NCBI GenBank assembly: GCA_964016885.1
Contig: OZ024743.1
Span: 281,728,001 to 281,792,000 of the forward strand
Source: Eledone cirrhosa
Taxonomy: Eukaryota
Direction of reading: 5' to 3'
Length of the DNA stretch: 64,000 bases
The notes below the pieces were generated by a model. That model searched no databases. It was not told the origin of the DNA and saw only the letters and a list, made by a program, of their open reading frames with translations. The translations under genes were made by a program, and so were the position numbers. Below are positions 4,356-47,063 of this stretch, in pieces (positions within the stretch are counted from its first letter, which is position 1; every line of letters starts with the position of its first letter).

Positions 4356-4440
4356 TAATAATAATATATATATATATATATAATATAAATTAATAAAAAC
4401 AATGAATAAAAACAAAGAACAAGTTCCTTATATTAAAAAA

Positions 4441-4560
4441 TTCATCATTTTACGATCGTTTCTAGGATATATATGTGTGTGTTGGTATGTATATCATATA
4501 GATCTATGTAAAAATATTACAAACTATCAGAGGAAATATACATACCTTCAGAAATGATGA
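4441..4560 (-). ncRNA. Type I hammerhead ribozyme motif (A9 lost by deletion)
   Basis: Minus strand reads UCAUCAUUU-CUGAAGG-(long stem II)-GAAA-CGAUCG-UA-AAAUGAUGA. Confidence 0.7.
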
Positions 4561-4797
4561 GATTTGTTTATTGAAAAAAAAAAAAAAAATTTTATATAAT
4601 AGGTCTGTTTGGGAACATGTTTTGAATTGACCAATAGAAAGTAGTAAGAGGTCAAGTTGATAGAATAGTAATAGTAGATATTTAATTTAGGGGTAGAGGA
4701 GTGCAGACTTATGTTTTGAATGGAAAGAATACTTTGAATGAAAAAAATACTTTGGGGATGAAAAGAGGTCAAGCCGGTGAAGGGTACACGAAAATTT

Positions 4798-5130
4798 GAT
4801 GTTATTAAAGAATAATGTTAAAAACGAAGGAAAGTAAAATTTTAGGGTAAGGGTATTAGTGAGAAATACAAATCTTATTTAAACCACAAGGAATCTAGAT
4901 CTATAACAAGAAATTAAATTAATTGATAGGTATACTTATAGGATAAATTTATATTAATTCATATGGATGTGATAAATAAGAATTAGATGTTATTAAAGAA
5001 TGTTGTTAAAAACGAAGGAAAATAAAATTTTGGGATAAGGTTAGTAGTGAGAAATACGAATCTTATATAAACTACAAGGAATCTAGATTCATAACAGGAA
5101 ATTAAATTAATTTATATGTATACTTTTAGG
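4798..5130. repeat. Diverged direct duplication (period ~189 bp) in the PLE 3' region
   Basis: gatgttattaaagaat...aaggaatctagat...aaattaaattaatt occurs at ~4798 and ~4987. Confidence 0.85.
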
Positions 5131-5262
5131 TATTAATTTTAGGAAAAGAGCTGTAAGAGGGAAATAAAATTATGAAGTTCTCTGTAGTAAAGTACTAATT
5201 ATAGGTTAACTAAATTAAAAAAACTAATTATAATAATATGTAAAATATAAGTGTAAGGTGTA

Positions 5263-6229
5263 TATTAATTAGGTTTATAATATTTGAAGGTTCTTCTAAT
5301 TCTATGATTGCAAGATATAATTAATTCTTGTCGCTTATTTAATAGGATATCCTTAGATTTTATTATTTCAAAAAGTTCCTGGGAGCATAATCTACACTCA
5401 TATCTGTTATTTTGATAAGGGGTGGCCCTTTTGAGCACACTCCAGGTCAGGTTGTAATCGATATTCTTTTTTCTATAATTATTAATTGTTTCAGGGTGTT
5501 GTATTAGCTAATGCAGCATTTTTAAAACCATGTTTGTGGGTATTAAATCTTACTTTAAATTGGTTAGACGTAGCTCCTATATATGAATAAGTGGAGTCCT
5601 TAGTTCTAATTTTGCATTTATAGACTATGTTATTAATAAGACAATTTCCCTTTAATGGGCAATTTCTTTTGTTTCTACAGTTACAACCATTCGTGAATAT
5701 TATATCAGGGGAGTTAGTCAAATTTGGTGTGGAATTTACTCGACTTGTTATATGTGAAGGAGATGGTGGTTTGTTGCGGTTTATTTTAGTATTATGGTTG
5801 GTTTGATGTGTTGGTGGTATATTCGTGTTTTTTTTTACATTTTTATGTGCTGTACGCACTTATATTTTATTGTATATTTTTGGTAGTGGAGTAGGAAAAT
5901 TTGACAGTTGATCTATTTAAAATTTGATGGTATTTATGGTTTGGCGGGAAGTTTTTCTCTAGGATAGTAAAAAAAAATTTAGGGATATTATCTTTAATTT
6001 GTAGATTAAATGGAGCATTATACCAAGTAACCCGTCTATTACGGTTTCGATATTGTTTTTTATATTTATACGATGTATCAGGATGTTTACTAAGAGAGTT
6101 ACTATTAGTGAATTTACTATATATAGGTTTAGTTAGATTTAGGTGTTTAAGTCTGATTATTAGAAATTTTGTTAGTAATGTTGTTAACATATATTGGAGT
6201 ATTAGGATGAAAGGTTTTTTGAAAGTCAT
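5263..6229 (-). pseudogene. Disrupted PLE ORF: RT thumb/linker and GIY-YIG endonuclease
   Basis: ORFs 5867-6229 and 5491-5859, plus an out-of-frame C-terminal segment ~5263-5485. Confidence 0.85.
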
Positions 6230-6989
6230 AGAGAAATTAAGTTTTAGGTTGGTATTTTGGGTGTAGTGTGAGTGGCATTTAGGTGTGGGTTTTTCATTTG
6301 GTGTTTGTTGGTAATATTGGGTTGTATGTTTGAAGTGTTATATCTTTTCATGATATTTGGATTACATTGAGTTCTTCATACGGATTGGACACTACCGTAT
6401 ATTTTGGTAGATTTATCTACATATATATATTATATATATATAGTAATAATAATAATATATATATAATATATATATATATATATATATGTATACACGCACA
6501 TACATATAAACACTTGTGCTTTATTATAATGAAGAAGCTGCTACATTAGTAGCAGTGAGGTCAGTGAGGTAGTTTCATGGCTATAATGAAGTATATATCA
6601 CTCTACTCCTGTAGTGGGTTTTGTTTCTCCTGTTGATATAGTAACGCCTATAAAAACTCATATTTATTTCTTTACTTTCATCATAAACAAATTTTACCAT
6701 TCTTCCAAATTTAATATCAAAATAAGAAAACAAAATGTCCTCTTATTGAGAAAGGTATCCATTCTGATTTTATTAAATACTGCTTTATTGTCTTCACTTT
6801 GAAAGTCTCAAAGTGGTGAAGGAACAATTGTATATATGGTTACCTCTTTTAACAATATTTCCCTTACTGAGAGATCACTATTGAAGATTTATATTTTGTA
6901 ATGCGTCAGTGAGTTTTGCTCCTTTTCCACTTATCTTGCATCCCTTAGACTCGGTTTCCTATCAGGTTGCTTCACCACACCTCTTATTA

Positions 6990-44104: not shown

Positions 44105-44542
44105 ATCGCTCACTCTCCCATAGTGCTGGTGTCATGACAAATGAAATTCAGTTCATCCTATAAGGTCGTCAAGTTGGTGCCACAACAAAAAAGCACCCAG
44201 TCCACTCTGTAAAGTGGTTGTGCTATGACAACAAAGCACCCAATCCACCCTGTAAGGTGGTCATACTGGTGCCACAATAACAAAGTACTCAGTCTACAAT
44301 GCAAGGTGGTCGTACTGATGTCACCAAAAAGTACCCATTCCACTCTGTATGATGGTAGTGCTGGGGCCATGGAAAAAACCGTCAGTACATACTGTAATGT
44401 GGTTGGCATTAAAAAAGGTATTCAGTCATAGAACACAAAGCCCAAAACATGGTCACCAAACCTGTCTAACCTCATAATGTGACAGTCCGTGTAACTCGTA
44501 CAAAAATGATAAATAGATGTTAATGGCAATGATGATGACAAT
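44105..44542 (+). mobile_element. Old RTE 3'-UTR or RTE-tailed SINE with ~45-bp subrepeats
   Basis: Repeated aaaagcacccagtccactctgtaaagtgg modules; degenerate (GAT)n end. Confidence 0.7.
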
Positions 44543-44647
44543 GAGAATAGTTAACATTGGAAGAGATGACAGATTTTTGCCAATTTCATCAATTATGAAA
44601 TTTTCAGCAACAAAATGATATTGCATATCTCTTCTTTAAATAAGATG

Positions 44648-44835
44648 AGTCGATTGGCAGTATCGGTAGAGGGTCGGGCGCCATGCTTTCCAGCATAGTT
44701 ATGTCCCTTTACGATCTGAGTTCAAATCCCACCGAGGTTGACTTTGCCTTTCATGCTTACAGGGTCGATAAAATAAAGTACCAGTAATGCACTGGGTAAT
44801 TGCTGGCCTTGTGCCTAAAGTAGAAACAATTATTA
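44648..44835 (+). mobile_element. tRNA-derived SINE (Nin/Deu-like domain)
   Basis: A and B boxes plus the central domain. Confidence 0.9.
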
Positions 44836-45297
44836 TTGTTATATTTGGGTATGATCATGTTGCTAGTATTGCCACGGCCACCATATGATTTTCATTTTAT
44901 CTTTATTATTAGTTATTGGTTAGTTCATCAAAGTTCTTTCAACACACATTCTGTGACCTCCTCAATGACTGTTCCTTTTTGTGCCTTCTCTTCTTTCTAG
45001 TCTTAATCTATTATTCCATCTTGTCTTTTGACAAAACAAAAGACAAAGAACTATGTCCTTTACTCTACAAAACTAGCTCTGGATCAAATCAATAGAAACT
45101 GAATTTAATTTTTCATAAGGGTTTAATTTATATGAGTTTGAAATACATACACAGGCACTCAACAAAGCAAATGGATAATAACAATAAAAATTAATCAAAT
45201 AGAAAAGAAAAAAGTCATTCTTGCTGTCGATTTCGTACTACAAGGAATCTTGGTATTGCTTCTAAACATTTTTGAGGCAAAAACTTGTGACATTATT

Positions 45298-45520
45298 AGG
45301 GTAGTGGATTGGCAGTATTGGTAGAGTGTCGGAAAACATGCTTTGTGGCATATAGTTATGTCCCTTAACATTCTGAGTTCAAATCCTGCCAAGGTTAGTT
45401 TTGCCTCTCATCCTTATGGGGTCGAAAAAAAAAGTACTAGTAATGCACTAGGGTTAATTTAATCAACCTCCCCTCCCTCAAAATTATTGGCATTGTGCCT
45501 AAATCATAAACCATTATTAT
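45298..45520 (+). mobile_element. tRNA-derived SINE, longer subfamily
   Basis: Same head and core, with an extra segment gggttaatttaatcaacctcccct. Confidence 0.8.
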
Positions 45521-46734
45521 GGGTGATAATGAGGGTGAGGTGCTGGAACAATCAAGTACTTTCACAAGCATCACTTTATACTATTCAGTAATCTGAGTCA
45601 CCAACAATGACTTGTTGTCAGCAGCAGCAGTCAAAAATTATTTAAGCAACCCCAAACACTCATGGCATGACTGTGGATGATAGCGAGGCTGAGGTGCTGG
45701 AACAGTCAAGCGCTTTCACAAGCATCACTTGAAACTTTTAGATAAGCCATGAATGATGACAAAAACTTCAATGTCTACAGCCCAGATTTACTAAATGTCT
45801 TGAATGCCGTAGGTTAAAAAATTAATTCACCGATTAATTCATTCTCAGTACATAGAAAGGAAACGTCAAAGGAACAATTAAGAAAGAGATCAACGGTTAT
45901 ATATCAAGTTTATAGCATTCACAATAGTATAAAAGAACTTAGTTGAAGTGTGATTTAATATAGTTAGTGTATGATATTGAAGCATCATGAAAGGAAATGT
46001 GTGTGAATTGTAGTATATGATGTGGAAACAGTAAGACAAAGAAAGAAACAATATATATATATATGTGTATATATATATATATATATGTATGTATGTATGT
46101 ATGTATATATATATATATATATATGTATGTATATATATATGTATGTATATATATATATATATATATATATATATATATGTATGTATGTATATATATATAT
46201 ATATGTATGTATATATATATATATATATGTATGTATATATATGTATGTATATATATATATATGTGTATGTATATATATATATATGTGTATGTATATATAT
46301 ATATATATATATATATATATGTATGTATATATATATATATATATATATATATGTATGTATATATATATATATATATGTATATATATATATATATATTTAT
46401 ATATATATATATGTATGTATATATATATATATATATATGTATGTATATATATATATATATATATGTATGTATATATATATATATATGTATGTATATATAT
46501 ATATATATGTATGTATATATATATATGTATATATATATATATATATATGTATATATATATATATATATATATATATATATGTATGTATATATATATATAT
46601 ATGTATGTATATATATATATGTATGTATATATATATATATATATATGTATGTATATATATATATATATATATATGTATGTATATATATATATATATGTAT
46701 GTATATATATATATATATATATATATGTATATAT

Positions 46735-47063
46735 AATATAAGATCAAAAGATGGTTAAAGGTGTTCCATATATTTTATTATGCGCATTTCAAAAACAAAC
46801 ATCATCATGCAATAATATTTGTGTTTTCATCAGATAAAACAGGAGAACATGATATGAAGGCTAAAAAACACTTTGATGAAAACACAAATATTATTGCATG
46901 ATGATGTTTGTTTTTGAAATCCGCATAATAAAATATATGGAACTCCTTTAACCATCTTTTGATCTTATATTATGCATACTCCAGTCCTACAAACTGTAGA
47001 GTGCTTCTTATCCGATATCTGCATTGCTTTATTGTACTACAATAAAACTCACCTCCTACATTA
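46735..47063. mobile_element. Penelope-type terminal repeat as an inverted pair (~46735-46832 and ~46874-46971) plus a one-sided tail
   Basis: Arms are reverse complements, each with hammerhead boxes; embedded in (TA)n. Confidence 0.8.
46773..46839 (-). ncRNA. Type I hammerhead ribozyme motif, canonical core
   Basis: UUUUAU-CUGAUGA-aaacacaaau...guuuguuuuu-GAAA-UGCGCA-UA-AUAAAA. Confidence 0.82.

Follow-up and report, generated by a model that had tools for sequence, protein, structure and literature searches.

Truncated head-to-head insertions of three Penelope-like families in (TA)n tracts of Eledone cirrhosa and their likely origin by twin priming

Four insertions lie next to (TA)n in a 64-kb stretch of the Eledone cirrhosa genome (contig OZ024743.1 of assembly GCA_964016885.1; the whole stretch is called the window here). 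They are 5'-truncated, 5'-inverted insertions of three families of Penelope-like elements (PLEs) that encode a reverse transcriptase (RT) with a C-terminal GIY-YIG endonuclease, a layout already known. Self-comparison of the window identified a palindrome at 10702-11129 (428 nt, 99% identity) and an inverted pair at 34366-34853/35719-36207 (490 nt, 95.7% identity), while the inverted pair at 46735-46972 is visible directly in the letters, and its arms were aligned. In each of these three pairs an extension, or tail, is confined to one side, and (TA)n adjoins them as well as a fourth, split case at 4385-6421. The original prediction, made from the sequence alone, was that at least three unrelated families share this layout. 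The inverted arms, the one-sided tail and the (TA)n flanks were confirmed in all four cases, but the layout had already been described for PLEs. Three families (A, B and C) were indeed found, but two of the cases belong together: in the same self-comparison, 4385-4546 is 73% identical to the 10702 arm and 6343-6440 is 91% identical to the tail of that case, so that by sequence the 4385-6421 and 10705-11262 cases are two subfamilies (A2 and A1, respectively) of one lineage, family A. The features are as follows, L-numbers designating other genomic loci, ORF an open reading frame, UTR an untranslated region and pLTR a pseudo-long terminal repeat.

4385..6339, minus strand: family A2 tailless inverted arm (tblastn with the intact ORF of L300, E 3e-93)
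4441..4560, minus strand: damaged type I hammerhead (CUGAAGG core, GAAA-CGAUCG-UA)
6343..6423, plus strand: last ~80 nt of the family A tail, forming the entire putatively tail-primed arm (91% to 11182-11280 and to L300:950-1031)
10702..10912, minus strand: family A1 tailless inverted pLTR arm (intact hammerhead motif 10902-10769)
10916..11129, plus strand: family A1 sense pLTR arm (intact hammerhead motif 10929-11062)
11130..11262, plus strand: family A tail, the first part of the next unit's 5' UTR (runs into 5' UTR and ORF in L172, L199 and L300)
34280..34365, minus strand: family C tail (runs into 5' UTR and ORF in L097, L067 and L267)
34366..34851, minus strand: family C tail-bearing pLTR arm (two 140-nt repeats, non-canonical hammerhead-like motif 34435-34395)
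34853..36207, plus strand: family C tailless arm (C-terminal end of the GIY-YIG endonuclease, 3' UTR, pLTR)
46735..46867, minus strand: family B tailless inverted pLTR arm (intact hammerhead motif 46833-46779)
46872..46972, plus strand: family B sense arm, cut within the hammerhead core
46973..47061, plus strand: family B tail (runs into 5' UTR and ORF in L022, L106, L151 and L168)
46051..52541, no strand: (TA/TATG)n array of 6.5 kb that holds the family B copy

The four cases differ in how much of the element each arm retains. In 4385-6423, a 1.96-kb tailless arm with the 3' part of the ORF (~amino acids 477-813, frameshifted), the 3' UTR, which carries a 188-nt tandem repeat, and the pLTR ending at (TA)n stands head-to-head with the last ~80 nt of the tail. 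When this copy was used as query, the match began at base 81 or at most 25 nt later, i.e. past the junction, in 38/39 other top-scoring loci; in other copies the ~80-nt tail piece is not found beside the ORF piece. Both arms of 10702-11262 consist of leader only, and window positions 10907-11263 are 96.6% identical to the leader that precedes the intact ORF in L300. In 34280-36207 a 570-nt tail-bearing arm faces a 1,354-nt tailless arm with the endonuclease end, and in 46735-47061 both arms are cut inside the leader, the tailless one being ~33 nt longer toward 5'.

Searches of the assembly (3.0 Gb) found 7,884 (A), 13,476 (B) and 18,759 (C) exact matches to the tail motifs. This abundance is not due to chance, since reversed control patterns gave 0 matches, and it corresponds to at least 7,900 to 18,800 copies per family. 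Because longer copies continue the tail into 5' UTR and ORF, the tail is the first part of the 5' UTR of the next unit, and the unit order is pLTR(hammerhead)-tail-5'UTR-ORF-3'UTR-pLTR-tail. Tandem units, with ORFs that are broken but complete, are found in L097 (family C, unit length 3,249 nt) and L106 (family B, 3,628 nt), while L300 (family A) has an intact ORF of 812 amino acids with RWR, DKT, YRDD, CxCX5C, GIY-YIG, CxxC and CxH motifs. Partial tandems forming pLTRs, an inverted 5' copy and a one-sided tail were found in L097, L106 and L300. The RT and GIY-YIG domains were assigned from motifs: RWR/RWK in A, RWT in B and RWR in C, DKT in all three, and in each the CxCX5C linker, CxxC and CxH, with a GIY-YIG domain devoid of CCHH. 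The A ORF and the C endonuclease piece share 45% identity, so that, judged from their sequences, the three families are mutually related as proteins, contrary to the unrelatedness predicted.

These features are those of the Hydra clade of C-terminal endonuclease-containing (EN+) PLEs, which includes Hydra-1_Obim and Penelope-13_HM and is defined by RW(K/R/T), DKT, CxCX5C and CxxC/CxH around conserved E and N, without CCHH (Craig et al. 2021, PMC8557442). Nearly all Hydra families are described as targeting (TA)n and bearing hammerheads (PMC8557442), and PLEs in general as forming inverted 5'-truncated copies and carrying a tail on one end only (PMC8557442, PMC3846280); the annotation of Penelope-13_HM includes an inverted copy truncated at 5' and places a hammerhead on each strand (PMC8557442). 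The families found here share with that clade the RT with C-terminal GIY-YIG, the clade motifs, the (TA)n targets and a type I hammerhead with CUGA(A/U)GA core and GUU/GUA sites. They differ in unit length (C 3.25 kb, B 3.6 kb versus mostly <3 kb, which is a tendency and not a strict criterion), and their tails are longer (85-135 nt versus the 30-40 bp described for PLEs). A homologue search returned 118 proteins with nearly all uninformative names, and the Hydra-1_Obim protein is collinear with these ORFs when compared by eye; the Hydra-1_Obim hammerhead sequences are unlike those found here, where the family C core reads CAGAAGA. Thus, the PLE origin advanced in the original prediction was borne out by RT and GIY-YIG partner copies for A, B and C, the motifs make it very likely that the four cases are Hydra-type insertions, and the three families are new members of a known clade with a known layout. 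In Octopus vulgaris, 31 recently active Penelope-like families have been reported; hammerheads and Hydra go unmentioned in the portion of that account drawn on here (PMC13282606).

Hammerheads were located with our own type I descriptor rather than with Rfam. Complete motifs were found at 10929-11062(+), 10902-10769(-) and 46833-46779(-), whereas 34435-34395(-) fits with one core mismatch; type I hammerheads in pLTRs, as predicted, are therefore present by motif in A and B, the C core being non-canonical. The motif at 10929-11062 has CUGAAGA, GAAA, a self-complementary stem III loop and a GUU site, and that at 46833-46779 has CUGAUGA, GAAA, the AUGCGCAU palindrome and an AUA site. The stem III loop is self-complementary in the A and B motifs alike, which is the dimer-type design of animal PLE hammerheads (PMC4209133). 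According to the original prediction, two non-coding cases consist only of paired ribozyme-containing repeats. This holds for 10702-11129, the only window case with an intact motif on both arms, but for the left arm only of 46735-47063, as its right arm starts within the core and is devoid of C3 and the 5' strand of stem I. Across family B, 13/23 pairs have intact motifs on both arms. In the 4385 copy ~18 nt are missing immediately after the core (read by eye). Core changes usually abolish most hammerhead activity (PMC3088659). The C core reads CAGAAGA in 68/73 motifs and CUGAAGA in 0/73, and in the right C arm of the window it reads CAAAAGA. This family-wide U4-to-A change in the most abundant family (window 34435-34395 and 36138-36178) coincides with a weak 5'-end hot spot, and the core letters would fit either ribozyme loss or a natural hammerhead variant.

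No hammerhead was present among the 150 of 203 Rfam matches listed for the window, which were miRNA (microRNA) models only, below gathering scores. As monomers, the B and C motifs folded no better than shuffled sequences (z -0.99, -1.90, 0.76, 0.19); the A2 hammerhead copy gave z -2.44. The original prediction that both strands would yield the same self-cleaving RNA could apply to 10702-11129 only, and even there the read-through transcript is predicted to fold into a single long hairpin burying both motifs. An excess of C3-to-U in tail-bearing B arms (15/54 versus 1/53) was rejected as the outcome of query selection, the query's right arm beginning with that letter; the excess is absent from the pairs of the unbiased B sample.

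How the arms are built was determined from 70 of the first 73 exact family B tail matches on contig C1 (three lay within a neighbour's stretch), which were mapped onto the L106 unit, two microsatellite mis-hits being removed before counting. Two fixed starts recur, P at the pLTR end and T at the tail end: one arm starts at T and the other at P, both mostly against (TA)n. The tail ends lie in TA-like flank in 62/70 copies and continue into the 5' UTR in 2/70. An inverted arm adjoins 43 of the 70, bearing out the inverted 5' pLTR of the original prediction; 32 of these arms reach P, with a TA-like flank there in 27, three include the tail and eight are cut by the stretch edge or later insertions. 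The predicted targeting of (TA)n is upheld by these flanks, and most A and C tail ends also lie in (TA)n. In its 5' reach the tailless arm goes further than the tail-bearing one in 24 of the 43 copies, is shorter in 4 and equal in 15, and the sense arm is tail only in 11/43. Two independent priming events are favoured, since the tailless arm is usually the longer and fold-back cannot yield that. The junctions between arms show overlaps of 1-34 nt or fillers that differ from copy to copy in B, and junction letters vary likewise in the A and C samples. Arm differences averaged 1.6 within a copy versus 8.7-9.9 between copies (14 B copies with both arms complete), which argues that the two arms of a palindrome were made from a single source during insertion and do not descend from a palindromic master. 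At the palindrome centres of L283/L284, L270/L271 and L272, two or three short re-copied pieces of the first 10-20 nt of the leader are found, some with a G in front, as repeated template jumping at the RNA 5' end would leave.

The 5' ends of the arms pile up at TTC|A, strongly in B, clearly in A and weakly in C. Measured from the end of the tail, the A of this site lies 258 nt upstream in B, 350 nt in A and ~155 nt in C. In B, 21/43 inverted and 16/70 sense arms end at -256..-260, amounting to 37/68 of the ends within -400..-100, at the site TTC|ATATG, 68 nt before the hammerhead core. Genome-wide, at this site 2,557 arms have a G and 2,820 an A or T where the template would give C, and 6,210 read through, so that ~46% of the B arms covering TTC|A stop there, non-templated C being left uncounted. 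G makes up 48% of the non-C letters genome-wide and 12/23 of the non-reference letters in the B sample (p 1e-4 versus 0.167). Such breaks number 0-2 at 12 of the 14 neighbouring anchor positions; the 3 at -260 and the 10 at -263 resemble variation between subfamilies. A non-templated G is an accepted signature of capped RNA for L1 and SVA (PMC4859970). The family A hot spot is TTC|ATTAT, 7 nt before the core, with 9/30 unbiased copies ending there and 3,105 non-C junctions; the A1 sense arm of the window starts (10916) a few bases 5' of it.

In three Illumina runs of an independent study, reads join opposite strands at the B site (L106:7726), with 1-3 start positions per run, this support being at family level and not for the window's own junctions; loose (TA)n ends at P are seen as well. 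Reads aligned to the window palindrome could not separate its arms.

Insertion into pre-existing (TA)n arrays is favoured over extension of (TA)n by the element, since the G/C polarity of the flanks is the same on both sides in 22 copies and mirror-like in 9 (uninformative in 94 of 125). L299, a family A palindrome, has a 9-bp target duplication and no (TA)n, its empty site being present in >20 paralogues, which indicates staggered nicking without added TA. Two filled copies do have longer TA (52 and 80 nt) than their diverged empty paralogous sites (16 and 11 nt), which could be explained by duplication of a TA seed plus slippage. The (TA)n extension envisaged in the original prediction is thus not demonstrated.

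Taken together, the window cases are truncated head-to-head PLE insertions that probably arose by twin priming, and the short palindromes are probably dead-end leader cDNAs; twin priming combined with run-off at the cap is a reasonably probable origin of the layout as such. In AT-rich DNA the endonuclease would nick both strands, with reverse transcription then primed by each 3' end at one of the two internal start sites, T or P, both of which lie in AT-rich patches that could pair with the nicked (TA)n end. Many cDNAs would run off the capped RNA 5' end after 70-350 nt; short palindromes would follow from the position of P and T in the 5' leader of a linear capped RNA. The two cDNAs would then be joined by microhomology or a few filler bases, whereas tandem or circularized RNA, or a jump to the 3' pLTR, may account for the ORF-carrying arms (4385-6339, 34853-36207). 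A shared sequence, TTG(G)CTCC...CGGTTGAGC, immediately follows T in the tandem copies of B and C, and in family A the two halves of this GCTC...GAGC element are split by a GT...AG segment of ~90 nt that looks, by its sequence, like an intron. The short units end just before the element, which by analogy is likely a protein-binding site, and because they are devoid of it they would be dead ends without re-mobilization. The GT...AG segment, in the family A 5' UTR at L300:1060-1150 and also in L172 and L199, is retained in genomic copies; its excision would join the GCTC and TTGAGC halves, which are adjacent in B and C. A fuller formulation, held at slightly better than even confidence, is that thousands of palindromes record PLE integration by a dimeric RT-endonuclease that primes both nicked strands at two fixed leader sites. 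Nearly half of the cDNAs would run off the cap as strong-stop-like DNA, and full-length copies would depend on an RNA circle made by the hammerhead or on a jump to the 3' pLTR.

Several observations weigh against this reading. No adjacent inverted arm was detected in 27/70 B copies, about 10 of which stop at -507 to -515, where the L106 reference differs, and neighbouring copies on the contig may be non-independent. The G excess is clear in B only, and some of the B G's could come from microhomology with the partner arm. In A, G accounts for ~22 of the first 100 matches listed, counted by eye, which is near background, and many of the A letters at the site stem from arm-arm overlaps and SINE (short interspersed element) insertions. 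The family C hot spot, TTC|AGAAG inside the core, is used by 4/30 copies, none with G. Among the four window cases only 10702-11262 ends near a hot spot, and the capped start at TTC|A is deduced from genomic copies, not from transcript 5' ends. For the GCTC...GAGC element RNAfold gave a hairpin in family C only (none in A and B), and its proposed role is by analogy. Membership of the Hydra clade was assigned by motifs rather than by a tree, and Pfam and PDB sequence searches of the ORFs gave no significant match.

Other origins were weighed against the same data. A single cDNA, or an antisense RNA template, might snap back and copy itself, as proposed for rotifer PLEs (PMC3846280), and this would suit the perfect or overlapping palindrome centres, which are common, and the subfamily letters shared by the arms of one copy. 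However, fold-back of a tail-primed cDNA needs a tail-bearing arm at least as long as the other, and it is shorter in 24/43 B copies; the tail-only sense arms (11/43, likewise 6343-6423) also speak against fold-back, which leaves the fixed P end and the junction fillers unexplained, and we regard it as rather unlikely. It is somewhat less probable still that the fixed 5' end is not a capped transcription start, but results from cleavage by a nuclease or ribozyme or from pausing of the RT: UUC, a hammerhead-type triplet, precedes the site in all three families, and in A the G signal is weak, with none in C, but GAAA/stem III was not found ahead of the site in the reference sequences, the site differs from the predicted hammerhead cleavage position, and the 48% share of G in B is not accounted for.

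The original prediction envisaged minimal units, either non-autonomous PLEs or similar to retrozymes, whose transcripts cleave themselves and which re-insert as palindromes and possibly extend (TA)n. The thousands of short ORF-free copies of similar size, the many B copies whose two arms both retain an intact motif (13/23 pairs), the published non-autonomous Chlamys PLEs and PLE-derived retrozymes, and the two filled sites with TA runs longer than at the empty paralogues are all in keeping with it. Nevertheless, such units are improbable. All three families have partners of autonomous type, the copies are inverted rather than tandem and without sequence 3' of T, the full transcript is predicted to fold into one hairpin, and the 22 versus 9 flank polarity favours pre-existing arrays. 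A non-autonomous master (MRC1-like) is not indicated in these small samples, in which junctions are copy-specific, arms group by copy without left and right classes, and arms differ by 1.6 within versus 8.7-9.9 between copies. As the layout is textbook PLE anatomy, a new class of minimal units is not called for. Non-LTR retrozymes (bioRxiv 10.64898/2026.07.22.740005; PMC7229834) are likewise non-coding, pLTR-derived and equipped with type I hammerheads, but form head-to-tail arrays with a hammerhead per unit, whereas variable head-to-head junctions and nearby autonomous partners are found here. The retrozyme-like reading fails because tandem units (at least two head-to-tail, each with a complete hammerhead) are the defining criterion (bioRxiv 10.64898/2026.07.22.740005), and a head-to-head order was found both in the window cases and in the short copies sampled. 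Finally, near-perfect palindromes within AT-rich repeats, with the window's own junctions not spanned among the reads aligned, might recall an assembly or long-read fold-back artefact. This is hardly credible in view of the substitutions that distinguish the arms, a SINE in one arm only at L047, the target duplication around L299 and the opposite-strand joints in Illumina reads of a separate study.

The closest biochemical parallel to twin priming is Poseidon PAc of Anolis, which in vitro cuts both strands of AT-rich DNA and extends them, with two internal RT start sites bounding the tail and ~55 nt of RNA required beyond the start; the protein is a predicted dimer, and hammerhead cleavage is dispensable in vitro (Frangieh et al. 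2024, PMC11167929). By analogy with this PLE, P and T were inferred to be the two start sites. The tail bounded by two start sites near the pLTR-ORF junction and the AT-rich targets are shared with PAc, but PAc belongs to a different clade and its start sites lie 111-118 nt inside the ORF, versus the 5' UTR, ~45-150 nt before the ATG, in the families studied here. The Adineta vaga Penelope (Arkhipova et al. 2013, PMC3846280) shares the inverted pLTR, the optional one-sided tail, palindromic inverted junctions, 8-10-bp target duplications, an initiator (Inr)-like motif in the pLTR and solo pLTRs; it differs in low copy number and in the self-priming on an antisense template proposed for it, which is ill-suited here because of the arm-length asymmetry. 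The origin of inverted pLTRs and one-sided tails was named an open question (PMC8557442) and has been partly answered in vitro (PMC11167929).

The short run-off products proposed for these families would correspond to a known type of cDNA. In retroviruses, priming near the RNA 5' end yields a short run-off cDNA, the minus-strand strong-stop DNA. The parts of a twin-primed L1 insertion do not overlap and start at the poly(A), whereas both arms here can copy one segment from two fixed internal sites. Shared with L1 twin priming are the 5' inversion produced by two primers and the non-templated G that marks the capped RNA end (reviewed in PMC4859970). Neither a twin-priming account of the PLE mechanism nor a 5' hot spot in PLEs was found in the openly accessible literature, most subscription journals being outside its scope, and no strong-stop account of PLEs was found in the same literature. 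The part of the Hydra-clade account used here (PMC8557442) gave no such hot spot, while Fig. S2 of PMC11167929 maps genomic ends and may already show it.

What these copies add is evidence that can be counted, both for twin priming and for a 5' end marked by G. In vivo constraints are provided by the fixed starts at P and T, by the unequal arm lengths and by the hot spot with its G; they favour twin priming over self-priming and predict exact transcription starts. If the fuller formulation is correct, genome sequence alone would suffice to read off where transcription and reverse transcription start in any PLE family. Such copies are also liable to misannotation as MITE (miniature inverted-repeat transposable element)-like elements, SINEs or miRNA hairpins, the last because Rfam gave miRNA models below gathering scores.

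Other features of the window and of the sampled loci can be noted. The TA flanks of earlier copies have often been hit again by A, B or C, generating nests (L051, L055, L105, L124, L131, L137). In the very long (TA/TATG)n arrays at 46051-52541 and 53671-55258 the G/C polarity switches several times, and such arrays were possibly built by repeated inverted insertions or fold-back repair. Further inverted repeats at 18866-21262, 27560-27792, 29124-30224 and 13571-13714 (69-83% identity) are unrelated to families A-C. Directly after the 10702-11262 element, an open frame from 11290-12500 onward has RT features, including an LYADD motif, and is taken by us to be an RTE-like long interspersed element (LINE) reverse transcriptase. 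A SINE-like repeat with the head aattgtttctac... is present in many copies (3609-4355, 9159-9340, 13827, 31470, 44733, 57600-58008), some of them head-to-head around TA/TAA repeats. In 7/84 sites its head lies directly at the family A 5' hot spot, which suggests a shared AT-rich target or nested insertion.

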